In this document: one piece after another, positions 13,345-53,186 of the stretch
Layout of the letters: each line of letters opens with the position of its first letter
Position numbering within the stretch: the stretch's first letter is position 1
NCBI GenBank assembly: GCA_000934665.2
Contig: JYFJ02002656.1
Location: 1 to 53,186, forward strand
Direction of reading: 5' to 3'
Source: Catajapyx aquilonaris
Taxonomy: Eukaryota
Length of the DNA stretch: 53,186 bases
Program-made: the position numbers and the translations under genes
The notes under the pieces: model-generated
The model's input: only the letters and a program-made list of their open reading frames with translations
Told to the model about the DNA's origin: nothing
Database searches by the model: none

Positions 13345-13643
13345 GACTCTTTAAAAAAATTTAGATATTCCACGCAAAAAAAAAAAAAGGAAGATGCTTG
13401 CACAGAAATGTGGAGTAAACAAGCATTGCTTAACGACCTAAAAAAAAATGCATATTATTTCAACCCAACAATTTAATTCTAATAATGATTTTTTGTACAG
13501 AACATTGTGTATCACGCATTTGAAAACAGCAAGTTCATAAGCGCAGGTCACGGCAATAATGAATGTAAATTACAGTACGTCCCATTTGCTGTCAGTAAGG
13601 ATCGTGATTTCGCTTAGATTTTACGCTCAAAATATTTGGTGAG

Positions 13644-14748
13644 CTAAGCTTCTTCGTCAGCGAGTAATGCAAACTTTGCGTTGCGTACAGGCGAACCATG
13701 TTCAATGCGCCAGACGGCACCATTTTGACCTTCGGTCGCTAATTTTAAAATCGCAGCAGCAACTTCAGTTGGCCTGAAAAAATAAATCAAAAAGTAATTA
13801 AAAATCGTGTACTGTTTCAGCATACATGCCAATTATTGTCATCTTACATCATTGGCGCCATTGAGTTCGACATGTCTTCGACCATCTGGCTGAACTGGTG
13901 TCCTTCTCCCCAGACTCCTCTACCGTGACCCAAGTTTGTGTCCACTTTTCCAGGGCATATGGCCATAAAGCGGACACCAGTAACTTCCAAGTGAACGGGA
14001 TCCTGAAAATTTAACGAATTTAAAAAACCGAAACAAAAACGCATTTTTCCATCTGAGCTTACCGACATGCATCGACTGAAAGCAACGACTGCGGACTTGG
14101 TGGTACTGTAAGCTGGTAGTAGTCCTGACGGAAAAAATGTAACGATGCTCCCAATATTAATCACAGTTCCGCCAGAACCGCCTCTGTCTTTTCTCATCAC
14201 ATCGACAGCCATGTAGCTACATCTGATCACTCCAATCTAGCGATGCGAATAAAATATATTGTGAATAGGCACCATTGTCGTCCAATAATGAATACACACC
14301 AAGTTTGTCTCAATTGTCTTTTCCCAATTGGTCTCATCGACGACTCCAGCTGAGTTGATCACAAAGTCCAGCCGATTCCACTTTTCCGTGATTCCATCAA
14401 ATACAGCTGACGTACGAAGAAAATAAGTTACGTTTTCGTGTACATTGCACAGAAACTTATGAATTCCACCTTTTAGTTGGTTTGCACTGCACACGTCTGC
14501 CTGAAAAAATAATGCGCTTCCCTTCTTGAACCTCGAGCCCAAATCGTGCAAGGCGCTTAGACCGGCATCACCATTCACATCGCAAAATGCCACCTGGAAG
14601 AATCAAAACTGTCAGTAAATCAGATGCTCGGTAAGCAAAACCTCAGCTAACAGACCTTCGCTCCTTCCCTCAGGAAATGTGCGACTGTTGCCTTTCCTAT
14701 TCCGTCCGCTCCTCCAGTCACAAGCACCACTTTTCCGTTCAGACACAT
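13644..14748 (-). CDS. 15-hydroxyprostaglandin dehydrogenase-like SDR copy B; 6 exons
   Basis: [34 protein letters not shown]. Confidence 0.9.
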
Positions 14749-15379
14749 TGCTCTTTGGTCTGATCATACAATATTCTTACAGTTGGACGGAGCTCAAAAC
14801 TTTTCCAGCAAGAACTTATGCGAAATATGCGTACTTCACATGAAGCAGACTGAGAGAACTCGAAAAGGTGCAAGTGCTTTTATAAGGTAGCTTCATCGTT
14901 ATCATCATTACCGCATGGCAGCAATTATTTTCTAACGAGAAACTTGGTTCATCAAGACCCTAATCAGCCGCAGTATGACTGACAAAAGGGAAAATGTGCT
15001 GTAGTAACAGCAATTAGTTATTGAAGTGTTGAATACATTACAAAACTGGTTCGATTTGTTGAAATTAATTTTTCAAGTATAATGCTGGAAAACTATGCTT
15101 TTCCTTATTGATGTTGTCCATGTTTGCCGCTGATTCAGTAAAATGCTTCCTTATTGTAGGTTGGCAACTTAACGTTAGCAATGTGACATGGTGGAATATT
15201 AGCCCATAATAATTGCAATGGCATAGCATAGGTTACAGGCGTAGAAGTACAACCAGGCAATTCACGCCTGAATAATTACACGACTGTGAACTAGATAATT
15301 ACTTCACTATTTTCAAGGACATGTGGGCAGTGATGAAACAAATTGTTTGGGGCACAATCACGGTTTGGAAACAAACATA

Positions 15380-16672
15380 TTATGCTTTATGTAGTGGTGT
15401 GCCATGTTGCAAGCACCAAACAGATCCATTCTCGCCTCCTTCAGCCAGTCGGCATATGGCCGCAGCCACTTCATCCGTCCTAAAAATACGAAATACGATC
15501 ATTGTGACAGCCACTTAACGAAGGTGTGATTGTCGGCTTACGTCAAACACGGAAATGTAGCAACTACTTCTTCAAGCAGCCGACTTAGTTCATGACCTTC
15601 TCCCCAGACGTCCTTGCCCTGACCCAATGTGGTGTCAACTCTTCCGGGACACAGCACCAGGAAGGAGACCCCAGTGCGATCAAAATGCACTGGATCCTAC
15701 GAACCAATATTACAAATAGATTATAAAGCATCTGGCTGTGAAATGTAAGTACTTACAGACATGCACCGTGTAAAAGAGACCACGGCGGACTTGGTGGCAC
15801 AGTAAGTCGGGAAAAGTGCAAAAGGATCCAAGGCCATTCCGCTAGCCAAGTTGATCACAGTCCCTCCCGAACCACCTTTCTCTTGGCTCATTAGATCCAA
15901 TGCCATGTAACAGCTTCGAACCACTCCACTCTTAAATGTACAACAATAATTAGCCCAACAATTGTTCAGTAATCTCCCTTTTCAAGTACAAGTAAATGTA
16001 TCGATATTTCCAATGGAGTAAAAAATAATAATTACCAAGTTAACCTCGATGGTCTTCTCCCAGTTGGACTCGCTTGCTATTCCAGCAATGTTGACCAAAA
16101 TATCTAGCCGATGCCACTTCCCTTTGACGCCATCGAATGCAGCTGGAATACGTGCTTCAGTTTAGGTCATATCCGCAAAGTAATTAATGTTTCAGTACCT
16201 AACTTCATGTAAACAGCAATTAACATTGTGTGCTGTAATTTTCTGCAAGGTGTTTCTAATGTAAATTTAAATTCATTATTAGGCGTATCATTCATTGCCT
16301 GTTCATCTCATTAATTTCTTTACGCACCGGATAAATTAGTGGATGAAAATAATGTTACGAATAATTCCTTTTTTTATTTGCCCTAATTGCTGACCTTTTA
16401 GTTGCGAGTCGCAGACATCGGCTTCAAAAAATGCAGCACTATCTGCTCCAAATTTGGCGATGATTTCATCCAGATACTTTCGACCTGCATTGCCATTCAC
16501 GTCACATATCGCCACCTAAAACGCAACATGTATGAACAAAATGGCAAATCATTCACCACATAAAATAAAGAGTCAATACCTTTGCCCCTTCCTTTAAAAA
16601 GTGGGACACTGTCGCTTTTCCAATCCCATCCGCACCTCCAGTCACAAGCACTACTTTCCCACTTAGAGACAT
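15380..16672 (-). CDS. 15-hydroxyprostaglandin dehydrogenase-like SDR copy C; 6 exons
   Basis: [38 protein letters not shown]. Confidence 0.9.
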
Positions 16673-17541
16673 GCTTCTGTGTCACTAGTAATTGCGCTTT
16701 ACTACTCCGGTCACTTCCAATGATTCTCGTAATGATTTCTGTGTAATCTCGACACTTCTGGCAGGATGAACAAATGCGGCACAAAAGAAAGTGTGCGAAG
16801 TATTGGGGGGATTATGTAACCTAAAGTCAAGGCTGCCGTCAAGGTGATCAGTTAATCCTCTTTTTTTTAAAAACGCTACTCAAGGATATGCCTGCTCATA
16901 TCCATTCGACAGAATACATGATCAGATGATGCAATGATTGTGTACAGAGTAAAAAACAAGAGAAAAAAAAAAAATTTATACAGGAGGATATAATTGCATA
17001 GAAATAATTACAATGTACTCTTTCCCATTCGCTCAGGACTATAATGTAATCGACTATAGTTGATCATCGTGCATATGAAAAAAAAATCATGTTGACAAAA
17101 CATGCCATGTAGAAGTTCTTCTAAAGAACCACAACTATTCATCAGAATACGAGCTTAACGATTAATCGGAAATGTTACGTAACCTATGTGCAAAATGATG
17201 CATCGTAATGCTGTAATTACAATACACAACCATTATGACTAATATACAATCGTAAGGCTAATCGCAAACCAACTTATTGCTGCAGATTTCACATGCACTT
17301 TTTTAGCAAATCTCTAGAATATTGAATAACATGGAAACGAGGTAATAAAAATTATGCTAGAAAACTACCAAATGCCGGCAAGACTTATTTACAGCCAGAT
17401 AATTAGAAGGTCTTATATTATACAGAGTAAATTAATTCAACTTGAAATGAATAATTCTAAACATGTTTCAGACACACGGTTCGGTTCAAAAAAAAAAAAA
17501 AAATGCAATGTAAAACTCGTTTCTTCAAGCTGAAGGCAGTG

Positions 17542-18848
17542 TCACTCTGGCTTGTCGCCAAGTTCGTATTGCGAGTTCTGAGACTTGATGAAATTGACGG
17601 GATATGGCGGCGAACCGGTTTCGTAAAACCAAACGGAACCGTTTTCTCCTTCCTTGACCAATCGCACTAAAACATCGGCCAGCTCGTCTGGTCTGGAAGG
17701 TAAAAATTCCAAAGTGTCAATACACACATTAAAGCATACAAACTGGCGTACTTATCAAGAGTAAATAAATTTCCATCTACGACATGGGAATACCTGAGAG
17801 TACTGATGTGACTGGCATCCTGACATCTCTTACTCAAGTCATCATCATCCTCCCAAATCCCAACTGGGGAGGCCATGCGGGTGTCCACTTTCCCGGGACA
17901 AATTCCAAGCACCCTCACGCCACTCCTGTCATAATGCACTGCGCCCTGTAATTGTCAAAAAGATGAACATAAATTTTAAAATGCTCTAAAAATATGCTTT
18001 TCAAAGCTGTAAAAAAAATCAGCATCAACGCAACTTGTAAAATGTACTTTACAAATATCTGACCACTATTTATACTCACCGAAATGCATCTTGTGAATGC
18101 AACTGCGCCTCCCTTTGTCGCAGAGTAGGTGGGAAACAGTTGGAATGGAAATATTCCCAAGTTGGAGCACACGTTTAGAATGGTTCCTCCTGCACCACCA
18201 CGATGCTTCCCCATCATTTCCATTGCCAAGTAGCAGCCACGGATCATTCCTTTCTGTAAAAACCATCATGACATATACATACTGCACATATTTTACATTG
18301 AACCAAGGTCTTACCAAGTTGACATCAATCATCCTTTCCCACTGCGATTCCTTAAGAATTCCAGCATTGTTGACCAGAACGTCCAGTTGGCCCCACTTTG
18401 CTTTTACATACTGAACCGCCTCTGCAAATAAATACGTACAAATTAAAAGCTGCAGCGGACCAAACCCTTGAAGCCGCATACTGTGAAATGACGCCGGACA
18501 GGTGACATCCATGTGGCAGAAAAGGGCCGAGTCCGCACCAAACTCAGCCTGAAACTCAACAGTCGCTGCATCTCCCGCTTGGCAGTCAACATCACAAATT
18601 GCAACCTGTGGAAATAAATAAATAAATACATAACGCAAGTAAATAAGTACAAGTAGATAAAGGTAACTAGATAAATCCAGATAAATGAAAGTAAATAAGT
18701 AATAAGTGAATCCGGTAAAGATGTAATCCGGGCTAAACGTGAATAATGTGAATACCTTTGCTCCTTCCCTAAGGAAATGCTTCCCGGTGCATTTCCCTAT
18801 CCCGTTTGCTCCTCCTGTGATGACCACGACCTTCCCGTTCAGGTCCAT
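17542..18848 (-). CDS. 15-hydroxyprostaglandin dehydrogenase-like SDR copy D; 6 exons
   Basis: TGGANGIG, VNNAG, YSATK, GVRVLGICPG, ENGSVW. Confidence 0.9.
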
Positions 18849-19356
18849 CTCGCTCTAATAATTAATTAATTCCAATTAAATGGCGATTCCGGCCCAACTT
18901 CTTATTCATGCCCTGCTTATGCACCTGGAAAGAATAAAATTGGAAACACGCAATGTAATGACCTGTGATTATGCCCATTTTCGAGCAATACTTCAAGCTC
19001 ACCTGATTCCGCAGCACGATTCTTGGGGGCTTGGGCCTTTCGTGGTGCGGTTAGAAACAAACGCTGGAAATTGGCTTCTTCACAACAATAAAGACAGAAA
19101 AATTATTCCGAAGGAAGGAAACTTAGAAGACATTTTTGTTCGAACCTAGAGACATCTGGAGGCGATCTCTTGAAACTGAATCGATACCCAGGTTATCGCA
19201 GAAAATATCGATCTTTTAAAGGTATCGATCGCGGTATCGATACAGGTTTGGCGCTGCTTTTGAATATTACAATCTAATCGTACAGTAATTTTATTATTTA
19301 AATCATATACTGTATAACATGACCTCATACTTAAATACAAAATTTGGAGCTTCGGC

Positions 19357-28970: not shown

Positions 28971-31900
28971 TTACCATCCGTGGTGATCAAGTCCGATTCC
29001 GATTCCGTGATCCAGATGACCTCCGTATCCGTGGCCTCCGTAGCCGTGACCTCCGTACCCTCCTCCGTACCCTCCGTACCCGTAACCAATGTGAGCATCG
29101 CCGATGCCCGTGTACAGTCCCTTGTGCAGGCTGGCAGATGTGTGAGAGTGCGTGTGCACCTTGTGGATCACCGGTACCTTGTGTACCACCGGAATCTTCT
29201 TGATGACCGGTACCTCGTGCACGACCGGGTACGGCACCTTCTGCACAACAGGGTACGGAACCTTGTGGATGACCGGGACGTTGTGGACCACTGGAACCTT
29301 GTGGATGACTGGCACCTTGTGGTAGACCGGTACCTTGTGTACAACAGGGTATGGCACCTCCTTCACCACCGGGTATGGCACCTTGTGGTAGACCGGTACC
29401 TTGTGTACCACAGGGTATGGCACCTCCTTGATCACCTCCACAGGTACTTTCTGGACGACCGGGTACGGCACCTCCTTGATCACCTCTACTGGTACCTTGT
29501 GGATGACAGGTACCGGTATCTCCTTAACCACCTCCTTCACGTACACCGGCGGCGCCTCGATCTGAAAGTAAAACAAGCCGTTTCGTACGGGGTGACTCTT
29601 TCAACTTTTAAAGTTATACAGTTGACCAACTGCTAACGAGAATAGTTAAATTATAATCACCGAGTAAAAGGGCTACATGCCAAAAGTTGGGGGGATGAAA
29701 CATTGGATCTTTTTAAGACACACTCTGTCACATCAATGGTGTGTATGGGAGCCAACAAACTGGAATGTAGCTGCGAAACACCCTGTACACAACACCATCG
29801 CATGCAGTAGCCTATATGATACAGTACCACCAAGTAAGTACAAGTACTTATATTGTTAGGTAAAAATCACGATGAAGTACAACACATTTCTATACACTAC
29901 GGTTACTTACACACACCCAGAATATAAACCTTAGCAAGAGCCCCAGTCCCCATTGGTTCCAACACCGTTTCATTTTATTTATTTATAAAAAAAAAATACA
30001 CGTTGTGTTAAAGTCCATTGTTTGAACCGAACTACTCTTATTCCCCGCCTGTACATGTGATGAAGCCTCGTTTTTTAATTTTTTTGAGCAGCCCCCAGCA
30101 ATTATAGCTGGAGAAAACTACTAACCTTGTGACAATCATGGGCGTCCGCAGGATTTTCTCCATAGGAATGCAAACCATCCTGTAGGGCGACTGGAGCTGG
30201 AGTGGGAGGAGGGATGGAGGGCAGCCCATATGTGCGAAGTTGAGGAGATGGAGAGGGCAAAGTGTGGGTCAGAGGAGGAGCTGGAGTGGTGCTGGAGTGG
30301 ACAACAGTGGGTGCTGGAGAACTGGAGTGGTGAATGTCAACAGAAGGAAGAGTTGGTGCTGCTGGAGAAGGCAAACTATATGTGGACTGGAGAGGTGCTG
30401 GAGAACTGGAATGATGGATGTCAACAGAAGAAAGAGTTGGTGCTGGAGAAAGGAAACTGTAGGTTGACTGGAGAGATACTGGAGAACTCGAGTGGTGAAG
30501 GTCAACAGAAGGGATGCCATAGGTTAGCTTGGGAGGAGCTGGAGAACTGGAATGGTGAATATCAACAGAAGAAAGAGTTGGTCCTGGAGAAGGTAAGTAG
30601 GTTGACTGCAGAGGTGCTGGAGAACTGGAGTGGTGAATGTCAAAGGTAGAAAGCGTTGGTCCTGGAGAAGGTAAGTAGGTGGACTGGAAAGGTGCTGGAG
30701 AACTGGAATGGTGAAGGTCAACAGAAGAGATGTCATAGGTTAGCTTGGGAGGAGGTGGAGAACTGGAGTGGTGAATGTCAACGGTAGAAAGAGTTGGTCC
30801 TGGAGAAGGTAAGTAGGTGGACTGGATAGGTGCTGGAGAACTGGAGTGGTGAAAGTCTACAGAAGAGATGTGGCCATAGGTTAGCTTGGGAGGAGCTGGA
30901 GAACTGGAATGGTGAATATCAACAGAAGGGATGTCGTAGGTTAGCTTAGGAGGAGCTGGAGAACTGGAGACAACTAGTGGTGCTGGAGAACTGGAGTGTT
31001 TTATGTCAACATTGGGGATTTGGGGTGCTGGAGAAGGCAGCTCGTATGCCAGTTTATGGGCTGGAGAATGATGGAAATCTACAGAATTAACCAGTGAAGG
31101 ATAGACATAGTGAGGGGCTGGATAATTGTATTGAAGTGTGTGTGCTGGAGCCAGCTCTGGATAACTAGAGTGTTGTATGTCGTATGAAGGAGGCGCTGGA
31201 TATCTGGAGTAATGAGTGTCAATAGCAGGAGCTGGAGAAAGTGAAGCATACGTTTCCTTATGAGGAGCTGGAGTGTCACAAGGGTCAGTTGACGGTGCTG
31301 GAGAAGGTAAACAGCATGGTGGAAGAGGTGCTGGAGAACTGGAAGGTTGAATGGCATACGACTGGAAGGTCGAGGCATACGAATTCTGAGGGGCCACTAG
31401 GGAAACTGGAGGTTGAAGGTCAGGTGAGGGCAAGTAAGAGGCTGACTGAGCAGGCTGGAGGTCAGAGGTCGCTGGAGGATGCTTAGGCGGGTAAAGTGAC
31501 TGGATGAAAGGACAATGGAAATTTTTTCATGTCATTCATTTCCACAAAATAATTTTCATGACAAACTGACTGCGAATGCCCATGACCACGTAATGATGTC
31601 GTTTCATACCAAAAAAAATTGCAAATTGGCAAAAAAAAACCGGATCGGAAAAAGGTGCAAACCTGTCTCATTGATTTGTGTCCTGAGGTAATCCCCACCC
31701 AGCCAGACTCTCGAAAGCAAAGACTTTCACACATCCTCAAGAGAGAGATCGACACTTCGGCCAATGAATTCACAAGCAATGCCATTAAAGGTCATTTCCA
31801 TTTGGCTCCAAAACTTTCTCTTTTAGAAAACCTGCCCAATCCTGACATAATTCATATATAGTCAAGGGCCGCCCTGGATTTTTACGTAACTCCGGGGGGT

Positions 31901-33701: not shown

Positions 33702-36700
33702 GTTGTTGACTAAAGGGTGATCCAAAACGATGTGAAGGGAAAGGGCAATCGGGTACAAACCTTTATACCAGGAAGAAGGTCGTTAAGTGAAAAGGAGGGG
33801 TGGGTTTGGGGGGGAGGGAGGGAAGGAGAGACGTACTTGGGGAGGGTGGGAGGGAAGGTGAAAAAGGAAGAGAGAGAGAGATATCTTGAACTTTTTTTCT
33901 CTCTCTCTCTCTCTCTCTCTTATGTCGATGGTTGGCTCCAGATGTTATGCTTTGACTTAGCAACTTTTTTCGCCCCCTTTCACATGTAAACTGGTTTACA
34001 CACATGTGGAGCAATACATAAGCAGATTTATATCCCCCCCACCCCTCCTCGTATGACCAGCACTGACCAAACAGCGTAATCACGGTGAAACTCACTCAAT
34101 TAGAAATCCTCCAGGTTTTCCAGCCGAACATTTTGATGGACATAAGTTACCGAAGAAGTGTCGTAATATTTTCCGCAATATGATGGTCATTTTTTTACAA
34201 GTATGATTTACGTTTGTTATTATGACAGGTACAGTGTACACAAACTGCAATTGTCAAGTTTTATTTGAGCTGTACATTTTTTAATGACTTTATAGTGCTG
34301 CAAATAAACAAATAAATATAAAATAATTTGCAAAAAAAAAAGGGTTCATAGCTCTACATATGCATAGATCAGGAATAATGGGTAGGCCCTATTGTATAAA
34401 ATAATTAAGTCAATAAATAATACAAAATAATAGTCAAATAATCGTATGCATAACCAGGAATTATGGGTATTGCATAAAATAATTAAATATTAAATAACAA
34501 ATAAAAATAAAAATAATAAAGAGTTCAAAGATCTACTGTATACGTAATATGCATAATCAGAAAATAATAATGGGTATGTTATACGAGTATGAAACGACCG
34601 ATTTGACGGCAACAATATAAGTCACGAATAATCCGGAAGAATTGGGTACAAAACGGGTATTAAGCGGTGGGATTTGGAGCTCAACCTGAGCATTTCCTGG
34701 GCCATTTTCATGACAAACGTTATGCAAAAAAAAAAAAAAGTTTTTAGTGCCACTAGCTCTCTTATTGTGTCCAGAAGAGAGAAAAAAAAGAGACAGCAAG
34801 TTACATTATTATAAATCCGATCGTAGCTCAACTAATAACAACAATGCACAGTACGTCACGTTATGAACGTTCTGCTCTTAACGAAACACACAAAACATGA
34901 CTACACCCACAAGATTTGTATACTTTGAGTCGAAGATTATGTTTTATCTGCTTCATTAGAGAAGAAAACTGTAATCACGACACGTTGTGCTTCGACTCCC
35001 TATAGTACAACCAAATAACTTTGGCAATGATCCATCAGAGATTATAATGATGAAACTATTGGGAGAGAAAATTATTTATCACAAAGTAGTGTTGTCACTC
35101 TTGCATTACCAGTAATTCAGGTATCATGTTACAGGCTGAATAAAAATTAATGCTGGCAAAAGAAATGATCTGAATTAATTATTATCGGCCACATTTCCTA
35201 CATTACATATGCTAAACATTGGTGTCAATGTTTGTGTTATAGTAATGATAATTATGTTTAAAATAATTAGCCTAAGTTCGTGCAGTGAATCTGTATTCAG
35301 ATTAATTACAAGTAGTTATAATATAAAATTACCAATTAATTACAATGCAATTCATTATCAATTATAGTGAATTATAATTATTTCATGAAAATAATTCTGG
35401 AATTGCACAGGCTCCAGCTGACTAATCTTATTATTTTATTTGTTATGTTAGTTATTAATATAATTAGGTACATTAATCTAATTTAATTATTAATAGCATT
35501 AGGTACATTAATCTAATTTAATTATTAATAAATTACTGTACTAAAATTGATTGTAATTAATTACATTAATTTATAAAAACCATTCTGGAATTTCACAGGT
35601 TCTAGTTGACTAACCTTATTGGTACATTAATTATCACATTAATTATTATTAAGATATGATTGATTATAATTAATTGCATTAATTCATGGAAACAATTATT
35701 CTGGAATTTCACAGGCTCCAGCTGACTAACCTTATTAATCACTAATTAATTAATAATCATAATTACTCATTACATTAGTATATATATTAAATTAATTATT
35801 ATAATTAACAAATGATTACATAAAATATAGTAATTAAATTAATTACAATTAACAAATGATTACATAAAATATAGTAATTAAATTAATTACAATTAACAAA
35901 TGATTACATAAAATATGGTAATTAAATTAATTATAATCAATTACCAAGTACATTAATTCATGGAAACAATTCTGGGATTTCACTTCAGTTGACTAATCTT
36001 CAGGGTATTTTTATATGCCCTTGTAACAATCTATAGGCCATCCGTCCACTTTCAGCAATTAATACATTATTATTGCTCAAACATTGAAAGCGAGCATCGT
36101 CGTGACCTGTCCAAGTGTACATTGGTGATGAGGCAAACAGACTATAAATTAGAAAACGATGCTGAAGTTTTGCCATGGAATTCTTCCAGTTTTAAAAAGT
36201 GACAAATGTGTGAAAGGAGGATAATGCGACGCGCAAGAGAGAGAAAAAAAATATCTAAATAATTGGCAAAAACCATGGGACTGCATCTTGATTCTGAAAG
36301 TTGATTATGGTGCATGGGGGGGCAGGTTTGAACGACCTTCTCTGAACTTGCTGTGTTTGTACGTGGTCATGGCATACGTCGCTTCAACTGTGAGATTTAA
36401 TCAATGCGCATTAATATCCTAACAATATTACAAAAAAATACTTGAACCTCAGTACAACACATTTCATATAGTTATTAGTGGGCGTAGTCAGAAAATTTTC
36501 CCATAAACAAAAATTGTAATCAATTATTGTCAGAGGTTGTCCTCATCTGTAATTTAAATGCTTCATTATTTAATTGCTTTTTATACGACGTTGTACCGGA
36601 CTCACTTTCGCTTCCCCTCAAGTCCACGTCAAGTTATGCAAATGCAAACTTCCGCCACTTTACCTCACACGTCCACATTTTTATTAAAGGAATTTTCTTT

Positions 36701-37515: not shown

Positions 37516-39465
37516 GCTCGGTATGTAATCGGATTTGTCCTGAAAATTAAGTAATCATGTATTACACGGACATGTACATAATCAGGTACGCTTTCGAGCA
37601 AAAATGTTATCTCGTCGCTAATGCCATTAAGTAGTGATATCAAGGCTCTTTTGTTTGAATTGGTCAGGTCAGGCGAGGTTCACAGCTCTTTCCGAAGTCA
37701 GCTTTCCATGGTTTTGAATGGAGAACCTCGCCTCAACTGGATTCTGCACTTCCGCTTTTCTTTACTGCCGGAGAGCAATTTTCTTTTGAAGCAAGCAACA
37801 ATCAGTACCAGCCCTGTAATGGCTCAGACTCAATTTTACACAATTTAGTACAGGTCCATTTTCACTTCATTTTTCGGGGCAGACATACCCACACGGCACA
37901 TAATAATGGTTCCGGCGCATAATTGCTCCGTAACAGGCGCATCAAACCGCTAATCACACCAATTAGTTACAACATATTCTGCTTCCCCTTCATATCAATC
38001 ATGCGCATTCCTTCAGTCAACGTGAAAGCCCCCCTTTTCGACGGAAGTGTGGGAATAGGGAAAGTGTAGGCGAGACGCGCGCACTGGACAAACCAGTTCA
38101 ACCCCGCCTACTCAATTTTACATTATGCCACTGCCCCAAACACTTTAACTGGTTCCTTTTTGCCCATCACTTTGATCCTTGATTGTATTCATGACGAGGG
38201 GGGGAGAAGGTTGAAACGAGACAAAAAAAAGGGGGGGATAAAAAAACTGAAAGCACGGCACACTTTTACGGTTTGAGGGGGTAAGAGCGACTAAGGGGAA
38301 GTGCACACAAAAAAAATAATAGTCGACTCCACCTTTTTCCGGTTGCTTATGAAACATGCCTAGGTGATTTTCTCTCCCGAAAACTGGTCGGTTCCTGGTT
38401 CTTCTCTCGGTTTATTGAAGGACAAGGTTTCGTAACATCAGTCTTCGGGGGGGAAATCGAGTTTTAACGAACTCCGCCTTAATCACAGAGCAGCAATTAA
38501 ATCAACCGAAACCATGCTATCTGAATAATTTATTAAATGTTATCAAAATTATGTGTACAAATAATAACAGAAAATTTGCACGAGAAGAGTTCAGGTGATT
38601 GTCATCAACTCTTATGCTAACTAATCTCCGAATCATAATTACATCCGGATGTAGCTCATAGTATAAAACGACGCATTTGAAAATAAATAAAAATCAGCAA
38701 ATACTATAAAATCAGTTTTAATCGCACGGCAGCTCAAATCAACCGTAACGACCAACACACATTCTATCTGAATAATTTATTGAATATTATCAAAATAACA
38801 AGATGTGTCCAAATGTAACAGAAAATTCACACTCGAAGAGTTACAAAAAAAGATAAATTGCAGACGATTGGCATCATCACCTCTTCACACCAACTGAAGA
38901 ACCTCTGAATGTTAATTGTAATTATATCATGACGGGAGCTCATTAACAGCATAAAATGAGCTGCGCTTTTTTTCAAATATAGAGGTACATTTAAAAAAAT
39001 AAAAATCAGTACATTACTATCATTTGATAGCTCAGACTCATTGCTGTGTGTGTATAAAAAAAGGTTATAATGTATCTAGCCGTTTTTTTTAAATATACAG
39101 AAAGAGGTCTTTTAAAAATGATAGCATTATCTTATAACATTCAAAAATAACTGAAGCAAAATTCTTAGAACTTCAAAAGCCCATTTGGCCCACATGAACA
39201 CACTGTCGGCTTCAAAATGCACTTGTCCGTAACCCGTGATGAACCAAATTGGACTCTACAAGTATTACTTCTTTTTTTGTCCTGTACTTGTATCATTATG
39301 AAAATAAAAAAAGGCACTGAGATCTTCAAGCTATCCTGAGAGGTTGCAAAGTCAGTGAACATCCAACTTCAAAAGCATGACTGCGAACCCCGCCACTTTG
39401 AAGTCTTTCAGACATCTGAATATCCACACTTTGTCTTGTGGCACACACACAAACTCGATCCATCT

Positions 39466-42400
39466 TCACAGGAAGTGAAGCTGGTTCGCCAGGAGCTCTG
39501 ACGGCTGCTTCCGTATGCTCTGGCCCACCAGGTATGCCAACTTGTGTGCGTACTGTAAAGACGGAAAGACAGTTGAGTACATAGTTTCAATGTTCAACGA
39601 AAATACGTGCGCTTCGTAAGAGTTCACCAGCATCACACTTGTACAACCAAAAATACCTAATGTTATTCAAATATGCACTTGACGACATCATTGTGTGCCA
39701 CTGTTAGAAAAATCAAGACCGACGGAAGTATCTGCTCAGAATGAATTTATCGTCAACCCGGAAAATGAGCTGTATTTGGACGCAGGCATTTGTCCGCTCA
39801 AATGACCGTCAGGCGCAATTTACATCATCATCGCAGACACTAAGACATGTGAGTACAAGTTACGAGTGGCTTTCGAGCCCCTGCAGCGGTAAGAACATTA
39901 AAATTTTCGCACCCAATATTAAACCCTGCAACTTGTTTGTTTCATATTTTTTACGTAGCGCGTCACAGCAACACAATTAGAAGGTTACGGCGCACACCTT
40001 ACTTTTGAAATGAGAAAATACTGAATATGAATGTCGTCTGTTCCATACAATAAATACGGGGAATAAGGGTTGGGCAAAATCCCTTTGGAAAGTTTTACAA
40101 CTTTCTTCATATTGCATGTACCGTAAATGGCAATACTTGAACTTGTACCCGTCCTTCTAAAGTGAAACCGGGATGTACAGTATATTCATCATCGTATGTC
40201 TCACCTGACACGGAGCAGGCACACGTACTGTGCCTGGCCAGTTGTAGTACATGTGTGTCATCTTGTACGCAAGTCGCTGGTGATGGTCAGGCAGCATCTG
40301 ATGTGTGTCGAACAGGACGACGTAGTGAGTTGGTGACACTGTTCCCTGCAAAAAAAAACACACACACACAAATATTAATAATAGTATGACCATAACAAGC
40401 AGCTGTGAACGGTACCCACCTCACGTACGTGCTGCGACACAAGGAAGAAGTCATAATACTTCTTGCTCGTGATGGTGTTGTCCATCACGGTTCCAGGTGG
40501 AGGATTGTCAAAATCCTTGCCCTATTGACAAACACATGTATCAACAAATTGCTTAGGAAGAGAAGCACCAAACTGTTGACAAAAATGGGTGGAAATTATT
40601 TGTGTCTTCACTGGATATTTGAGAAAACGTGCTTCGTTGCAATGAAACATTTTCCTTAGATTCATACAACTGGCCGCTAACGAAAGTATCTGCTCAGAGT
40701 GAAATTATCTTCAACCTGGCAAGTGAGCTTTTTGGACGCAGGCATTTGTCCACTCAAAATGCAGTCAGGCGCAATTTACATCATCATTGCAAGTTCAAGT
40801 TTGGTGTCTGTTAAATACTCCAGGAATAAACATACCTGCTTCAAGTACAGCCTCGTGTTGATACGCTTCTGCACCACCACGAAGGAGAACTTCGGATGGT
40901 GGTCTCCACAAACCAACTTGATCGACGCATGAAGCTGCTGTATCTCATGAGCCACAAGTACGTCAAATTGCCCCTCGCTGACCCCGTCCCGGTAAACAAT
41001 AATACGGTCGGGATAACACGAGTTCACCTAACAAAAGACACGATGGCATCAAATACGACGGAGAAAACGATTGCATTATAAGTATAGCTTCAACAATTTC
41101 ATGCACATTTTTATCCCAACTTTATACAACTGAACGCTTTGTTTATCCGCATAATACATGTTATTTGAAGTTGGTTACGACACATGCAGGATACATTGTC
41201 TGAGTGTAAGTCCCTAAAAATAAGGAAACATACCTCGTGATATTTACGCAGTGCTTGCATCATACACCGCTTCAAAGCATCAATGATCTCATGCCCAGGC
41301 TCCTGGAACGCCACGGTTGAGAACCACTGGGTGAGCGTGTTGTTCACCGCGGCCACAAATCCCATCACGCTCTTCTTGTTCTTCGCAATACCCTCATGGT
41401 AGACATCAATGCCGATCACCAGAGCGTTTTTCTGTCACAACGAGAATATTCATTAAAACACAACTTAATTAAAATCGAATCGCATTGCAGCAATGAAGGA
41501 GTCTTACAACAGGCATATCCACGGCCCACAGAGCGCCTCCCAGCTTGCAGTTAATCTGCAACGCAATCTTTTGCGTCACGGCCCTCAGCTTCCGTTCTTG
41601 ACTCAAGGTCCGAGACACAATGACCTGCGATGGAACAGGCTTGTCCGCACCGCACAACTTCTTAATGGCAGAGTAGAGATCGTCTCTGGACGTTGGCATG
41701 ATTATGGTGGCAAACTGCAAGTTTTCGTTGATGCAATCGGACAAGCTGCGGATAAATTCCCCCACTTGGGGACGCTGGGACAGCATCACATCCCTAGGAG
41801 GGGCTATCCTGATTCCCATCTGCTTCGATACCTAAAAATAATAAAAAACCATTTAAGATTCGGCGCAGACAACTTCTAAGAAAAGTCCACCTCAATTTCC
41901 GAAGTACATTGCATTACTAGATATAAAAACTCACCTGCAGAATAGTGGCTGTGAAGTCTTTGGCCTGGCGCTGGTTTGTACCGCTGTAAATCAGCACCCA
42001 ATTGCGCAACTCAACCTACAGAACGAAACCAAACCTCAGGTTAATATAACGCTTAAACTGCCGCAATCCTTGCAGATTATATTGAGACACTGAATAAACG
42101 AGAGGAAGGTAAACAGGGCAATAACTTAGTAATTTGGAATAATTTTAAAAATTAATGTAATTTGGCAACCAAAAAACGCATTCTCAATCTGTAGCTTCCA
42201 CCTGCCGTAAGAGATGAAAACATCCCCCCGGATGATCAGGCGTTGAGCCTAATTACTGTGCGCCCAGGCCCTGTGCAATCAGTCCATATCTTAATGATCC
42301 AAAAGGCTGTGCACCTCGAAACCTCGGCAAAACATTACTCAAAAACGAAACACAGAACAAGATGTAAACCCCCAAAAAAGAGAATGGTTGGGATGCAAAA

Positions 42401-44631
42401 TAAATTGTAACTGACTGGCTGCAAGATGTGGCCTCGGACAAGCATGTTCCCCCAGTCTGCATTGTGGTTCCTGATGTCATTTCCCCTTCCGACGATGATC
42501 CTCTCCGAAGGCAGGATACGAGCTTCCAGAGCTACAGTAGCATTGTCCAAGCTGAGCCCCCAGTTGGCCAGGACATCCTTCGCCTCCTGGCAGTCTGTTA
42601 AAACGCAACAAAACGGTTAAGTAAAAAGCACTCGCCAGCTAAGAACAGGTTTTACCCTCAACGTTCTTCAGAAACTTTTGCAGCGCAATTTGTCTCTGCA
42701 AGGGCGTCAGCTTGGTATGCTTATTAATATCTTTCATCAAATTATAGTTGGATCTTTGGTCATCTGTCAGCCCACTCATGTAACAGAGCTCCGGCACGAG
42801 GCAGACGAGCTGCGTGGTCATCTCCTTCCCACGCTCCTTCTTCTTCAGGTTGTTCATGAGCATGGGCTGAGTCTTGTGTCGGATATCCAGGTTGTACGCA
42901 CTTTTGTAGTAGTCCACATACGACATCTAGGAAGATAGGCTGTTGTTAATAATTTTTCCCAAACAAAACTTCATTCTACAGTAAACCGAAGAACTCACCT
43001 TCGTGCCGTCACTCCGCTCGAAAGTATCGGTCGGGTTCGAGTCCCAGTCGATATCATCTACTCGGTACATTTTGTTGTTGTACCGAGTGAGTACGTGAGC
43101 ACCGATCATCGCTTTCACAATCTCGTCCTTAAAGCTTCCTCTATGGTGTTGCATAATTTCACTCCTGCATAGCACATTACATACATTAACAACGACTCGT
43201 CACATCCCGACAGCAATGAACCAATGACAATGTTCATAGCATCAATTGAACCATGCCAGAAGCATCGCTAACTTACATGACATCATGCACAGTCTGCGTG
43301 CGCAGTACTTTATGCGACACATCGCAGCACAGCATCAGCCCACCCTCGTATTCGTGGACAGCTGTGACGTAACCTGGCCACACTTCCAGTCTTTAAAGAG
43401 AATCAAAATTATCCGATGAGCATCATAGTCGAAATCTACTGTAACGCAAACGTAAAATACTGACTTGTGTTGCGGAATCTGCGACCCATTCGCTGGATTG
43501 TAGTAGTTCCTCATTCCGACTTTGACCAGGTTCAACTTGGACATAATCTTGTTCATGAGCACGTTGTAAAAATGGATTCCGTATTCACTGTTCTTGTGCT
43601 TCAGAGTCAGCCTCAGTTGTACTGCGACCTGGTCTACAGGGTGGGTCGATGTTAAGTACGTGACCTTCTCAGGCAACTCGTACGGCAGGTAGAGTTTGGC
43701 ACCATCGAAATTCCGGGTCGGTCCCAGAAACTCTGATTGTTCTCTCAACAACAAGAAGCGCATGTTCTTCGAATCCACAACAGGATCGAAGGTCACCTCG
43801 TACTCATACATCCCCTTTCCTTCAGCAACTTTGAGATATATGTAGTTGGCCGTTGCATTCACTCTGTAAGCATACGGGTTAAGGTCACAAGATCAATGGA
43901 AGGGTAACGCAGTGCAACTCACTTTTGTCCGGAAGTCCCTCTGCGATTTGCAGGAGGCGGATGCGGCTTTTCCAGCGACATTCTGGACAAATCTTCCGTG
44001 ATGCTTCCGGATGATGTAGGTTGGCGTGTACTGTCGAGAAAGCCGTACATTACAGCATCCCATAATATTTTGATGATCGGTTAGGACTCACCTCCCGCTT
44101 ACTACTGACGCTGCGGCTACCACGCCTGCGATAACTGCTTTCCCGCGGCCACTGGGACCTGAAGAAATCATGCTTCCTGAGATCTTAGATGACGTAGACC
44201 CAGGTGGCGCCACGAATCCTCCGACGGCTCCTCCGACATCACCTCGAGGACCTCGAACAGGTTCGGACGACCCTGCCTGAATCAGAGCCTGCAGCAAGGC
44301 AGCCCTTCCAGCCGGCCTGGCAGGTGAAGCTCTAGGCGGTTCCACTGCCACCGCAGGCTGTGATGGTGTCGGCACCTTGAATCGAGATCATTAATAATTT
44401 CGGTTCAATAAGCGTGGCAAAAATGGGAAAGATGCTGACAACATCTGCCACATAAAATTTTATCTTCAGTCGTAATGTCCTGACATTTTTGACTTTACAG
44501 ACTGGAAAAGGAATGACGTTGATACATACATGGCTTTGGTCAGCCTGTGCTGGTCCCGGCCTTCTTGCCCTCTCCTCCTGCTCCTTCAAGGCTTGCAGCA
44601 AGGCAGCTCCTCGGCCGCCACGACCAGCCAT
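39466..44631 (-). CDS. AGO3: PIWI-clade Argonaute, most like Ago3; coding exons 44631-44530, 44375-44092, 44030-43923, 43863-43465, 43390-43277, 43164-42999, 42926-42656, 42594-42416, 42015-41935, 41831-41508, 41431-41234, 41027-40836, 40521-40420, 40345-40205, 39552-39466
   Basis: N-term [13 protein letters not shown] (Ago3/PIWIL2-type), PAZ ([24 protein letters not shown]), MID ([13 protein letters not shown]), PIWI with intact D-E-D-H (GIDVYH, EIID, YRDGV, YAHK). PIWI clade certain; Ago3 vs Aub/Piwi likely. Confidence 0.88.
39733..39835 (-). ncRNA. SNORD16: Box C/D snoRNA U16 homologue, copy 1 (last Ago3 intron)
   Basis: TGCG-ATGATGA(C)-TGTAAATTGCGC-CTGA(D')...GGACAAATGCCTGCGTCC...GGTTGACGA(C')...CTGA(D)-GCA; terminal stem; colinear with recalled human U16. 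Confidence 0.85.
39845..40002 (-). ncRNA. Candidate H/ACA snoRNA
   Basis: Hairpin 1 (GGTGTGCGCCGTAAC...GTTGCTGTGACGCGCT), H box AAACAA, hairpin 2 (ACAAGTTGC...GTAACTTGT), ACA+3 nt; directly upstream of U16 copy 1. Confidence 0.5.
40691..40791 (-). ncRNA. SNORD16: Box C/D snoRNA U16 homologue, copy 2
   Basis: TGCAATGATGATGTAAATTGCGCCTGA...TGCCTGC...GGTTGAAGA...CTGAGCA inside intron 40522-40835. Confidence 0.85.
42187..42316 (-). ncRNA. Candidate H/ACA snoRNA in Ago3 intron 42016-42415
   Basis: Hairpin GTGCACAGCC...GGCCTGGGCGC, H box ACAGTA, hairpin GGCTCAACGCCTG...CAGGTGGAAGCT, ACA+3 nt; ~130 nt, GC-rich island in AT-rich intron. Confidence 0.6.
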
Positions 44632-47819: not shown

Positions 47820-48950
47820 TACGTTGGAAATATGAGGGGGGAAAATATTTACCTTAATTGCATTTAGGTTGGAAATGTCAAGAATTTTTTTTTTTCTGCA
47901 CAGTTTGGTTGGAAATATGATTAATTGTGCAAATTTTAGATTGGAAATTAGACGTAATTAAGGTTTGAAAATGTGAGGACGAATTAACTTAATTGCATTT
48001 ATGTTGAAAATGTCAGGATTTTTTTTTTGCAGAGTTTGGTTGGAAATTTGAGGAAATATTAATTTTGCAAATTGAGATTGGAAATTGGAAGTAATTTGGG
48101 TTGAAAATGTGAGGAAAAATTACCACCTTTAATTGCATTTGTTGAAAATGTCAAGAATAATGTTTTTCGCACCGTTTGGTTGGAAATAAGCGGAAATATT
48201 AATTTTGCAAATTGAGATTGGAAATTGGAAGTAATTTGGGTTGAAAATGTGAGGAAAAATTACCACCTTTAATTGCATTTAAGTTGAAAATGTCAAGAAT
48301 AATGGTTTTCCAAAGTGTGGTTGGAAATTTGAGGAAATATTAATTTTGCAAATTGAGATTGGAAATTGGGAAGTAATTAGGGTTGAAAATGTGAGGAAAA
48401 ATTAGGTAATTATTTTTTCCTCACATTTTCAACCCAAATTACTTCCCAATTTCCAATCTCAATTAGCAAAGTTTTCCTGACATTTGTTGAAAATGTCAAG
48501 AATAATGTTTTTCGCAAAGTTTGGTTGGAAATATGAGGAAATGAAGACTGGTTGGAAATATGAGGAAATATTAACTTTGCAAATTGAGATTGGAAATTGG
48601 GAAGTAATTTGGGTTGAAAATTGAGAGGAAAAATTACCATCTTAATTGCATTTAAGTTGAAAATGTCAAGAATAATGTTTTTCGCACAGTTTGGTTGGAA
48701 ATATGAGGAAATTATTAATTTTGCATATTTAGATTGGAAATTATTTAAGTAATTAGGGTTGAAAATGTGAGGAAAAATTCGTCTTTTTACGCACTTTTGT
48801 TGGGAATTAGATGTCATTAGAGCTGGAAATGCAAGAAGCAAAATTCATTTTTTGCCCAGTTTAGTTGGAAATATGAGGAAATTATATTTGGAAATGTGAT
48901 GGAAAAATTTAAGTTTTTCACATTTAAAAGTTGGAAAAGTTGATTAAATT
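47820..48950. repeat. Satellite, ~140-bp unit built of TTG(G/A)AAAT-headed subunits, with a short inverted segment (~48410-48480)
   Basis: TTTGGTTGGAAAT...TTTTGCAAATTGAGATTGGAAATTGG recurs at ~48035, 48175, 48316, 48550, 48690. Confidence 0.9.
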
Positions 48951-49211: not shown

Positions 49212-49660
49212 TTACTTGGCGGCCTTGCCCTTCCCTCCCTTTCCGGATGAGGGTGCTGCTGCGGTTGTGGCTGCAGCTGCAGGCTTGGCGGACGCGACCT
49301 TCTTGGGGCCTGGAGGCTTCTTGTGCTTGGCCGCCTTGCTCTGGGCCTTCAGGACCTTCACCACAATCTTCTGCTCCTCAATCAGGAAAGCACGGAGGAT
49401 CCTAAAGAAAGGGGGTTTTCCCATAATCACAACACGGACAATTTATGGTGAAGTCGACTTACTTCTCCCTGACACACTAGTGGCAGAGGACACCGCCATA
49501 GGGCCGCTTGACGGTCTTCAGGCGGAGGCTCAACCTGGACTTCTCAAAGTTGCGGGCTGGCCTGATGCCCTTCAGCTTGGTCTTGCACTGGCCGCATTTG
49601 GGCACACGCTTCAGCTTCTTCTGGTGGGCATATCAGGTGGCCACCAGGGGCCTTGAGGCG
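49212..49660 (-). pseudogene. RpL34: Ribosomal protein L34 unprocessed pseudogene
   Basis: KAPGGHLI / KKLKRVPKCGQCKTKLKGIRPAR...KTVKRPYGGVLCH*CVREK|ILRAFLIEEQKIVVKVLK; in-frame TAG, frameshift near 49628, intron 49402-49462 retained, 5' exon absent. Confidence 0.85.
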
Positions 49661-49940
49661 ACAAAGAGTCCGTCTCGATGGACGAGATTCCTCGCTCAAG
49701 AGGGCTCACGCCTGAGAAACTTTTACGTTGATACCAGTCTTAACATTATGTATGAAAAATAAATTATTAATTTTGTCACATAAATAATTCTCAAAACCGC
49801 GACACTTGTGCTCAAATATGTCAGTTGAGGCTGAGATCTATTTTTTTTTTTAATTATTTTCAAAGCACACAAACAATTCAAAACAATAAATGAGGCACTT
49901 CCACACTTTGTCTTGTGGCACACACAAACTCGATGCATCT

Positions 49941-51535
49941 TCACAGAAAGTGAAGCTGGTTTGCCAGGAGCTCTGACGGCTGCTTCCGTATGCTCTGGCC
50001 CACCAGGTATGCCAACTTGTGTGCGTACTGTAAAGACGGAAAGACAGTTGAGTACATAGTTTCAATGTTCAACGAAAATATGTGCGCTTCATAATAGTTC
50101 AACAGCATCACACTTGTACAACCAAAAATACCCAATGTTATTCAAATATGCACTTGACGACATCACTGTGTGCCACTGTTAGAAAAATCAAGACTGACGG
50201 AAGTATCTGCTCAGAATGAATTTATCGTCAACCCGGAAAATGAGCTGTATTTGGACGCAGGCATTTGTCCGCTCAAATTACCGTCAGGCGCAATTTACAT
50301 CATCATCGCAGACACTAAGACTCCTGAGTACAAGTTACGAGTGGCTTTCGAGCCCCTGCAGCGGTAAGAACATTAAAATTTTCGCACACAATATTACACG
50401 CTGCAACTTGTTTGTTTCATATTTTTTATGTAGCACGTCGCAGCAACACAATTGTAAGGTTACGGCGCACACCTTACTTTTGAATTGAGAAAATACTGAA
50501 TATGAATGTCGTCTGTTCCATACAATAAATACGGGGAATAAGGGTTGGGAAAAATCCCTTTGGAAAGTTTTACAACTTTCTTCAAATTGCATGTACCGTA
50601 AATGGCAATACTTGAACTTGTACCCGTCCTTCTAAAGTGAAACCGGGATGTACAGTATATTCATCAGCGTATGTCTCACCTGACATGGAGCAGGCACACG
50701 TACTGTGCCTGGCCAGTTGTAGTACAAGTGTGTCATTTTGTATGCAAGTCGCTGGTGATGGTCAGGCCGCATCGGATGCGTGTCGAACAGTATGACGTAG
50801 TGAGTCGGTGATACTGTTCCCTGCAAAAAAAACACACACACACACACACAAATATTAATCATAGTATGGCCATAACAAGCAGCTGTGAACGTTACTCACC
50901 TCACATACGTGCTGCGACACAAGGAAGAAGTCATTATACTTCTTGCTCGTGATGGTGTTGTCCATCACGGTTCCAGGAGGAGGGTTGTCAAATTCATTGC
51001 CCTATTGACAAACACATGTATCAACGAATTGCTTAGGAAGTTGACGAAAATTGGTGGAATTTATTTGTGTCTATGCAAGTTTCACCGGATATTTGAGAAA
51101 ATGTGCCTCATTGCAATGAAACATTTTCCTTAGATTCATGCAACTGGCCGTTAACGAAAGTATCTGCTCAGAGCGAAATTATCTTCAACCTGGCAAGTGA
51201 GCTTTATTTGGACGCAGGCATTTGTCCACTCACATGCAGTCAGGCGCAATTTACATCATCATTGCAAGTACAAGTTTGGTGTCAGTTAAATACCACACAC
51301 TATACCAAACTTACAAGTGAAAATACTCCAGGAATAAACATACCTGCTTCAAGTACAGCCTCGTGTTGATACGCTTCTGCACCACCACGAAGGAGAACTT
51401 CGGATGGTGGTCTCCGCAAACCAACTTAATTGACGCGTGCAGCTGCTGTATCTCATGCGCCACAAGCACGTCAAATTGCCCCTCGCTGACCCCATCACGA
51501 TACACAATTATGCGATCGGGATAGCAGTGATTTAC
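49941..51535 (-). CDS. AGO3: Second Ago3-like copy, last four exons (51535-51344, 51001-50900, 50820-50680, 50027-49941); upstream exons not in window
   Basis: Colinear with 39424-41155 including introns; frames and splice sites intact. Confidence 0.75.
50208..50310 (-). ncRNA. SNORD16: U16 homologue, copy 3
   Basis: Near-identical to 39733-39835 with all boxes intact. Confidence 0.85.
51165..51266 (-). ncRNA. SNORD16: U16 homologue, copy 4
   Basis: Near-identical to 40691-40791 with all boxes intact. Confidence 0.85.
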
Positions 51536-51664
51536 CTACGAAAAGACAAGAAGGCATCAAATATGACGGAGAAAACAATTGCATCATAAGTAGAGCTTCA
51601 ACAATTTCACGCACATTTTTATCCCAATTTTATACAACCGACCGCTTCCGTTTATCTGCATAAT

Positions 51665-52140
51665 TAGGGGGCACGGCAGTGCCCCCGCCAAGTTCTCGCC
51701 GCACTGCCGGACCACCTTTACCCGACACAACTCACGTCATTTTGACCCCCTCGAATCTTCGCACTGGTGAACACACGTCGCTTCAAAAATTTCATTTGGG
51801 TAGATAAAAATCGATTAAAAATAATACCCCCTTAATTCCATGTTCATATCTCTTTTCATTTCCGACTTACAAAATCCTAAAAACTCCCAAAACGGCCAAA
51901 ATATGACACTCACTCACTGACTCACTCACTCACTGACTGATCATCAAAATTATACGGTACTTCCCGTGGGCCTAGGATGCTGAAATTTGGTGTGCTGGTA
52001 GAGCTTGTCAAACAAACGTCAGAATAAATCTGAAAACGGCACTTTTTTGAGTCTAAATGCTCAAAAAAAATTATTTTCACGAAGTCCGCTGCTGCTGACC
52101 AGATGCGGCATTTTTAAGACGGATTACTTTTTTACTTTGA
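51665..52140. mobile_element. Non-autonomous Helitron/HINE-like element
   Basis: Terminal hairpin GGGGGCACGGCAGTGCCCCC, (ACTC)n/(ACTG)n microsatellite and CCTAG.A.GCTGAAATTTGG block typical of insect Helitron-like repeats; starts exactly where Ago3 duplicate homology stops. Confidence 0.65.
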
Positions 52141-52601
52141 ATTTCCAGTTATGCTGGTGCTCCTCCTGCCCTCCCCACGTTATCATCTCCTCACTTCCTC
52201 CCCCCTCCTGCATACCGCTAGCCAACGACGTAGCCAGCCCCCCCCCCCCCCCCCNCCCCCCTCCCTCCCCCCGAAATCTTGTGGATTAAAAAAAATCATG
52301 TCAAGGAAATTACTAATTCATGATTTGGGGGTGGGGGGAAGTGCTACCAATTTCATCTAATACACACCCATTCAAATCTCCCATATTCACCTAAGCTTGA
52401 ACCTGAAAAAATTTCGCCTGCGGCGGACCTCCCCCCGAACTGGATTCCTGGCTACGTCACTGCCGCTAGCTATCTGACTGAAGCTGCGATTGCATTTCAT
52501 ACAAATACAAATATTTCATACAAATACAACTACAAATAGGCCTACCTAAATACCCCAAATACAAAATAATACAAATACAAAATTCGAGGTCATCAACAGC
52601 C

Positions 52602-52915
52602 TATGTATGTACAGGGAACAATTCCCAATTTGTGTGGCGTATGCCATTACCATACAGAGGACAGAGCCAAGGCATGAGTCTCACTAATGGACTCATCGAC
52701 ATGGGTTCCTCTGTCTTCTCGTGGCTCTTTCCAGAGTTAAAAGTATCAATGGAGTGCATCTCATCAATGCCTCCTTTACTAACACCAAGGCTCAAGAGTC
52801 AGCTATTCTGGAGTACGATAGATTGAGATCTGTTTACCGACCAGACTTATCCATACTCAAAAGGGCTAATAAGGCATCGACAGAAGTGGTTAAGGATCGC
52901 GAATGGGCTATGTGA
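52602..52915 (+). mobile_element. Decayed PIF1-type helicase C-terminus (Helitron remnant)
   Basis: EQFPICVAYAITI / SQGMSL...DMGSSVFS / VALSRVKSINGVHLI across three frames. Confidence 0.8.
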
Positions 52916-53186
52916 TCAGGTGTAGCTGATGTCCAATTCGCACAACCAGAACAGAAAAAAGGAAGCGTAATATGAGAAAGCAGAAGAAAATCTATTCAGA
53001 GGAAAAGATAGAGTTTTACATACTTTCGTATATAACCTACACACTTTGCTCTAAGTTATTAATTACCTTATTTGGAATATTTAACGGATCATTGCTTCCA
53101 CGCCCAACCGTAGGGGGCTCCCCAAGCTTTCTTATAATTATCCTACACTCCTGCCTACAAAAAGAGGTGAGATCCCACCAAAAACC

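Follow-up and report, generated by a model that had tools for sequence, protein, structure and literature searches.

U16-family box C/D snoRNAs in the introns of an Ago3/PIWIL2-like PIWI gene of Catajapyx aquilonaris

The box C/D small nucleolar RNA (snoRNA) U16, or SNORD16, is encoded in sense within introns in vertebrates; the text of PMC3035437 available to us places the human gene in an intron of RPL4, together with U18, and reports that depletion of U16 lowers Am484 in 18S ribosomal RNA (rRNA). Yeast snR87 has been described as orthologous to U16 and as sharing its extra pairing beside the methylation site, and for snR87/U16 the accessible sections of PMC3116282 describe this additional rRNA pairing element as conserved and the guides as among the shortest, dependent on the extra pairing extension. 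More generally, intronic snoRNAs have been proposed to move among hosts by "constrained drift", in which broad expression is the sole requirement placed on the host (Hoeppner and Poole 2012, PMC3511168, in the portion we could consult; see also the discussion in PMC6984369, likewise in part). Here we analyse contig JYFJ02002656.1 of the Catajapyx aquilonaris assembly GCA_000934665.2, the whole stretch of 53,186 nucleotides (nt) being referred to as the window, in which four U16-family units lie on the minus strand, two of them in introns of a complete gene of the PIWI clade and two in a second, tandemly arranged copy of that gene's 3' end. An earlier interpretation made from the letters of the DNA (the sequence-only reading) had proposed that an Ago3 gene of the PIWI-interacting RNA (piRNA) pathway hosts duplicated U16 snoRNAs, and had described vertebrate U16 as an 18S Am484 guide hosted in RPL4, in agreement, for the human gene, with the consulted part of PMC3035437.

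A cmscan search of the whole window with Rfam 15 at gathering thresholds returned four matches in all, every one of them to SNORD16 (RF00138, gathering score 45 bits), on the minus strand and spanning the complete model (positions 1-100 of 100); the E-values lie between 5e-08 and 6e-06. We denote these units A1 (39733..39835; 46.5 bits, E 4.6e-06), in the last intron of the complete PIWI gene, B1 (40691..40791; 53.8 bits, E 5.2e-08), in its third-from-last intron, and A2 (50208..50310; 51.0 bits) and B2 (51165..51266; 46.0 bits), both in the tandem copy of the gene's 3' end. With all four above the gathering score, membership of the U16/SNORD16 family is observed directly under the covariance model, by the very search that the sequence-only reading had proposed as a check, and the outer limits which that reading had drawn for the first two units, 39733-39835 and 40691-40791, coincide exactly with those of cmscan. 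Its description of a two-copy duplication was right in that both units are real, and incomplete in that A2 and B2 were overlooked. When the region of the gene was rescanned with Rfam at permissive settings, only sub-threshold matches of other C/D families on the SNORD16 unit were added, and no further snoRNA.

The C box (AUGAUGA), the D' box (CUGA), the D box (CUGA) and a UGC...GCA terminal stem, as claimed from the letters, are all readable in the alignment and are invariant in the four copies, which are also identical over the 12 nt following the C box and over a central hairpin with the loop TGCCTGC. In the minimum free energy (MFE) fold, the terminal stem of the A-type copies reaches 9 base pairs when flank bases are included. 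Vertebrate U16 (RF00138) has the same C and D boxes, guide before D', central loop, internal GCG(Y)C/GACG pairing and terminal stem, and is likewise intronic, in sense and a full-length match to the same covariance model. It differs from the window copies in being hosted by RPL4, whereas the latter lie in a PIWI gene, are four in number and carry A for U in the guide; moreover, the D' box of the window copies is the canonical CUGA where the Rfam SNORD16 consensus reads CUUA, and their scores are 46-54 bits. Yeast snR87, which we liken to them by description only, is an independently transcribed gene, unlike the window copies. Immediately 3' of the terminal stem, some 12 bases (GATACTTYCGT; 39721-39732 and 40679-40690, minus strand) are common to the A- and B-types, and part of them is taken up into the extended stem of the A-type copies.

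The host of A1 and B1 is a complete gene of the PIWI clade, Ago3/PIWIL2-like, on the minus strand (39466..44631), with its stop codon at 39466-39468 and a probable ATG, placed by inference, at 44629-44631. The Pfam domains Piwi_N (PF23278), PAZ (PF02170) and Piwi (PF02171) follow one another in order on successive exons, about a dozen of which were mapped by tblastn with four full-length homologues, and the spliced frame stays open for at least 813 codons. Contigs from a public run (X5) join the host exons over 12 gaps whose CT..AC ends on the plus strand correspond to GT..AG on the minus strand; the kind of library behind X5 is not on record, spliced contigs being what an RNA library yields, and a DNA run (X1) contains none of the 12 exon joints. 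The last intron, which holds A1, spans 39553..40204 (652 nt; X5 joint 39552->40205, CT..AC on the plus strand), and the third-from-last intron, which holds B1, spans 40522..40835 (314 nt; X5 joint 40520->40835, cut +1, with GTATGT...CAATAG ends), both on the minus strand. Each of these two skipped stretches contains one SNORD16 match, in sense. Because the X5 contigs pass over 39553-40204 and 40522-40835 at minus-strand GT..AG ends, both the spliced host transcript and the intronic sense position of A1 and B1 are direct observations, and the sequence-only reading was correct in placing the units on the sense strand of two different introns. Over the snoRNA-holding parts of the introns the X5 contigs give no cover, which speaks neither for nor against the snoRNAs.

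Between the two snoRNA introns lies a further, predicted intron (40346-40419, 74 nt, minus strand), deduced from its GT..AG ends and the reading frame, at a place where the reads break at a simple repeat. Among the 13 mapped host introns, nine measure 59-112 nt, the two snoRNA hosts 652 and 314 nt, and the other two 206 and 400 nt; neither of the latter gave an Rfam match or a C/D motif in permissive Rfam and C/D motif scans. The 400-nt intron (42016-42415, minus strand) greatly exceeds the 59-112 nt common in this gene; the scans revealed no pair of C/D boxes in it, which leaves room for an RNA of H/ACA or unknown type. An open reading frame (ORF) upstream of the mapped exons resembles the N-terminus of a homologue by tblastn, which suggests that the gene has at least one more 5' intron upstream of the mapped ones; a protein homologue search with one N-terminal exon gave no matches.

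Which PIWI protein the host encodes is less sharply defined. Among 5.8 billion proteins, the best matches of a Piwi-domain exon are only 45-60% identical to it, and the insect matches are mostly annotated Ago3, the others being called "piwi-like protein 1", "Piwi" or, by automatic naming, "piwi-like 1/2". We looked up by name 10 of the full-length representatives that an exhaustive HMMER search had returned: four are Ago3 or argonaute-3 (Chrysoperla, Rhagoletis, Anopheles, Gryllus), one is a lungfish PIWIL2, one is a "piwi-like protein 1" (Lineus), one an "unnamed protein product" and three are nameless. In a FastTree phylogeny of 61 rows, comprising the spliced host, 24 named matches and 36 representatives of at least 700 amino acids, shorter representatives being excluded, the host falls in an eight-row clade with the Ago3 proteins of Rhodnius, Plodia and Homalodisca (SH-like support 97), in a tree with no certain Piwi/Aub/PIWIL1 outgroup. 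Scores against the PDB are higher for MILI than for MIWI with two Piwi-domain exons, and higher for MIWI than for MILI with one PAZ exon. The best reading of these comparisons, though not a proven one, is that the host is an Ago3/PIWIL2-type PIWI gene. Of the Ago3 assignment in the sequence-only reading, the PIWI clade is thus borne out by the Piwi_N, PAZ and Piwi domains and the closest named relatives are indeed Ago3/PIWIL2; placement in the Ago3 subclade is qualified by the mixed PDB scores and the want of a certain Piwi/Aub outgroup.

The snoRNA units stand out from the introns around them. A1 and B1 are identical at 91 of 103 positions, while their 100-nt 3' flanks agree at 60 of 100 positions, against 58.9 +/- 2.5 for shuffled sequence, and their 5' flanks at 20 of 44. 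Between the tandem copies the units are closer still, with 1 of 103 aligned bases differing between A1 and A2, and 2 of 100 between B1 and B2 (plus three gap columns); taken together, 3 of 203 aligned snoRNA bases differ between these copies, as compared to 34 of 747 in the flanking intron (one-sided Fisher p = 0.027). Conservation is in this sense selective for the bodies, which were maintained while the surrounding intron sequence decayed.

The tandem copy itself comprises the last four PIWI exons and both snoRNA introns (49900..51664, minus strand; 90-93% identity by blastn to 39423-41155), a unit of about 1.74 kb covering the 3' end of the gene. Its exons lie on the minus strand at approximately 51344-51535, 50900-51001, 50680-50820 and 49944-50027, with the stop codon at 49941-49943. 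All seven splice sites (four acceptors and three donors) and the stop codon are retained, and across the 173 codons common to both copies there are 27 synonymous and 9 non-synonymous differences. Since the ratio of non-synonymous to synonymous rates (dN/dS) between the two is, as a rough estimate, about 0.1, the tandem copy has been under coding constraint and is not a dead fragment. No earlier PIWI exons of this copy were found in 51500-53186, the remaining ~1.5 kb of the window. At its 5' end the repeat shows 10-11% divergence between the two copies, declining to 2-4% at the 3' end, and a contig from the DNA run X1 that is placed on B1 bears B2-like changes at 40730 and 40757-40758; this gradient and this contig together give a hint of gene conversion or allelic exchange between the tandem copies.

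To see how U16 is hosted elsewhere, we used one pattern scan of metagenome contigs, which gave 63 loci, some of them on near-identical contigs, so that the counts below are not counts of species. Of 20 loci submitted to Rfam, 18 hold SNORD16, with 26 matches in total at 53-83 bits. A Pfam scan of 99 same-strand ORFs from 27 U16-bearing loci identified RPS23 exons beside U16 in eight, exons of RRM proteins in four and RPL4 exons in one, the remaining 14 giving no match. In the RPL4 case (L061; 33.2 bits against a cut-off of 25.8, and weaker in a first Pfam scan) one RPL4 exon is flanked by two U16 copies, and this locus provides a positive control, RPL4 being the known U16 host. A tblastn search with the PIWI protein of the window placed PIWI exons beside U16 in none of the 63 loci. 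The usual hosts are accordingly genes for translation and RNA-binding proteins, as the sequence-only reading had assumed. Paired U16 copies in neighbouring introns of a single host (RPS23, an RRM gene or RPL4) were seen at L018, L028, L030, L008, L024 and L061, and intragenic duplication of U16 appears, from these sequences, to be recurrent across animals.

The metagenome U16s share with the window copies the invariant loop and boxes and, often, the presence of two copies in neighbouring introns, and differ from them in their ribosomal-protein or RNA-binding hosts, their consensus guide U and their higher scores. Because U16 in the metagenome loci adjoins RPS23, RRM or RPL4 exons and never PIWI, we regard U16 as a mobile snoRNA that changes host between lineages, the PIWI gene being one such lineage-specific switch. 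In a limited search of the open-access full-text literature, which is not proof of absence, we found no description of a PIWI or Ago3 gene acting as snoRNA host, in line with the suggestion in the sequence-only reading that the arrangement had not been described. The units are thus new members of a known family in a host that is unusual and apparently undescribed.

A further peculiarity, overlooked by the earlier reading, concerns the guide. The four window copies read GUAAAUUGCG at this site, where the Rfam consensus and all 24 Rfam-confirmed metagenome U16s read GUAAUUUGCG, the change being an A in four of four window copies at a position where 24 of 24 others carry U. GUAAUUUGCG is also found in all 36 U16-like loci chosen by a motif filter from the 63 metagenome loci, and since the search pattern admitted either guide base, the difference is not a search artefact. 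We take the canonical 18S target motif to be GCGCAAAUUAC, the first A of which stands opposite the fifth base upstream of D' by the box D' +5 rule, and the 18S stretch at the U16 target site to be nearly invariant. Against this assumed motif, the guide geometry of the window copies is that of the Rfam consensus, and 10 of 11 guide positions pair, with the reservation that the motif may differ in the organism's own 18S. In a scan of viral contigs, the 18S target motif gave no matches.

The loop TGCCTGC, for its part, is identical in all 28 aligned U16 sequences (the 4 window copies and 24 others), for which an RNAalifold consensus gives just four pairs and zero covariation. The loop corresponds to the extra rRNA pairing element reported for snR87/U16, its complementarity to 18S resting on the assumed motif, and the fact that it has been kept speaks for an unchanged 18S target region.

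We consider it likely that the window contains four box C/D snoRNA genes of the U16 family encoded in introns, two in the complete Ago3/PIWIL2-type gene and two in the tandem 3' end, and that they work as standard 18S guides. The host PIWI pre-mRNA would be transcribed and spliced, and the intron would be debranched and trimmed by exonucleases down to a particle built on the C/D boxes and the terminal stem; the mature RNA of ~100 nt would then pair with 18S rRNA via the 12 nt that separate the C box from D' and via the central loop, a pairing that would direct 2'-O-methylation to the equivalent of human 18S A484. The feature is, in other words, real and mechanistically ordinary, and it is the host that is unusual. 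Several observations weigh against this reading. The scores of two of the four copies, 46.0 and 46.5 bits, barely exceed the gathering score, while metagenome U16s reach 53-83 bits, and the MFE folds of the four units are no better than those of shuffled sequences (z -1.3 to +0.6), an unremarkable folding energy being usual for the box C/D class. The distance from the 3' end of the snoRNA to the 3' splice site, 180 nt for A1 and 169 nt for B1, exceeds the vertebrate optimum for intronic snoRNAs of ~70-80 nt, which is a tendency and not a requirement. Finally, the guide presents an A-A mismatch to the assumed canonical 18S motif, two positions from the target's partner. Near-threshold scores and an undistinctive folding energy would also be expected of dead copies, retroposed or decaying, that lie in introns by chance; we find this very improbable, since none of the four copies has lost its boxes, guide or terminal stem, all lie in sense, one per intron and at matching positions in both tandem copies, and the bodies are conserved with flanks at the level of shuffled sequence.

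It is possible, though to our minds doubtful, that the units are real U16 genes and yet redundant passengers, with a conventional locus, for example in a ribosomal-protein intron, supplying most of the guide, and the PIWI host carrying no physiological consequence. Families of snoRNAs often occupy several loci and their hosts drift (PMC3511168, in the part consulted), U16 of other animals lies in RPS23, RPL4 or RRM-gene introns, and the window copies are the lowest-scoring against the Rfam SNORD16 model; neutral passengers would, however, hardly show bodies selectively conserved both across an old intragenic duplication and between the tandem copies. The guide change might instead have shifted or abolished the 18S target, leaving U16-derived orphans or guides for another site, and the A found in four of four window copies against T in 24 of 24 other U16s would fit such a loss, the more so as the U16/snR87 guide pairing is among the shortest (PMC3116282, in its accessible sections) and a single mismatch could matter. 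We think this unlikely, as the rest of the guide, the canonical D' and the accessory loop beside the same 18S site are all kept, and a compensating change in the organism's own 18S is equally possible. The stronger form of the sequence-only reading, in which a germline-restricted host ties U16 production and 18S methylation to piRNA-pathway expression, draws on the Ago3/PIWIL2-type host and on the dependence of every U16 copy seen in the window on PIWI introns. Germline restriction of Ago3 is nevertheless a weak premise outside Drosophila: according to the consulted portions of 10.1101/185694 and PMC11726155, non-gonadal activity of the piRNA pathway is widespread in arthropods. In addition, snoRNA hosts are broadly expressed as a rule (PMC3511168, again in part), and other U16 loci may exist; we judge this coupling quite unlikely.

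Elsewhere in the window, the second PIWI 3' end is followed immediately downstream by the remains of an RPL34-like gene (49212-49705, minus strand; Pfam Ribosomal_L34e at 49477-49632). This remnant, whose frame contains a TAG (49477-49479) and breaks near 49633, keeps a 60-nt GT..AG intron (49402-49461) and looks like an unprocessed pseudogene, or else like the product of local assembly errors. Tandem genes of the short-chain dehydrogenase type (adh_short) are represented by several exons in 12285-18854 on the minus strand, their closest database matches being weak and of the bacterial FabG type. One minisatellite (30277-31356), with units of 60-87 nt, lies inside an open frame of 474 codons (30102-31526), and two further arrays lie at 48001-48807 (~140-nt units) and 35798-35956 (44-nt units); Pfam gave no match in any frame of the three.

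Returning to the reading of the four units as standard 18S guides, the locus fits constrained drift in that a deeply conserved snoRNA family occupies non-orthologous hosts in different lineages; the same model, as far as the consulted part of PMC3511168 goes, expects broadly expressed hosts, and a PIWI gene is no obvious one, so that the case either tests constrained drift or implies a broadly expressed PIWI gene. An intronic snoRNA adopts the expression pattern of its host, and a host in the piRNA pathway is therefore a natural test of the broad-expression rule. The PIWI host implies either that PIWI is transcribed wherever ribosomes are made or that there are other U16 loci, and if such loci exist, the arrangement would be a routine case of snoRNA host drift. 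The one-base guide change common to the four copies offers, in addition, a simple test of guide-target co-evolution. We give a low probability to the furthest-reaching possibility, namely that the PIWI-hosted copies are the only U16 genes of the genome, that methylation at the A484 equivalent depends on Ago3-type transcription, and that the guide base is matched by a change in 18S. If the PIWI genes were indeed the sole source of U16, ribosomes would differ between PIWI-expressing and PIWI-silent cells, a tissue-limited 18S methylation that would amount to concrete ribosome heterogeneity, or else the demand for U16 would keep PIWI transcribed throughout the body.

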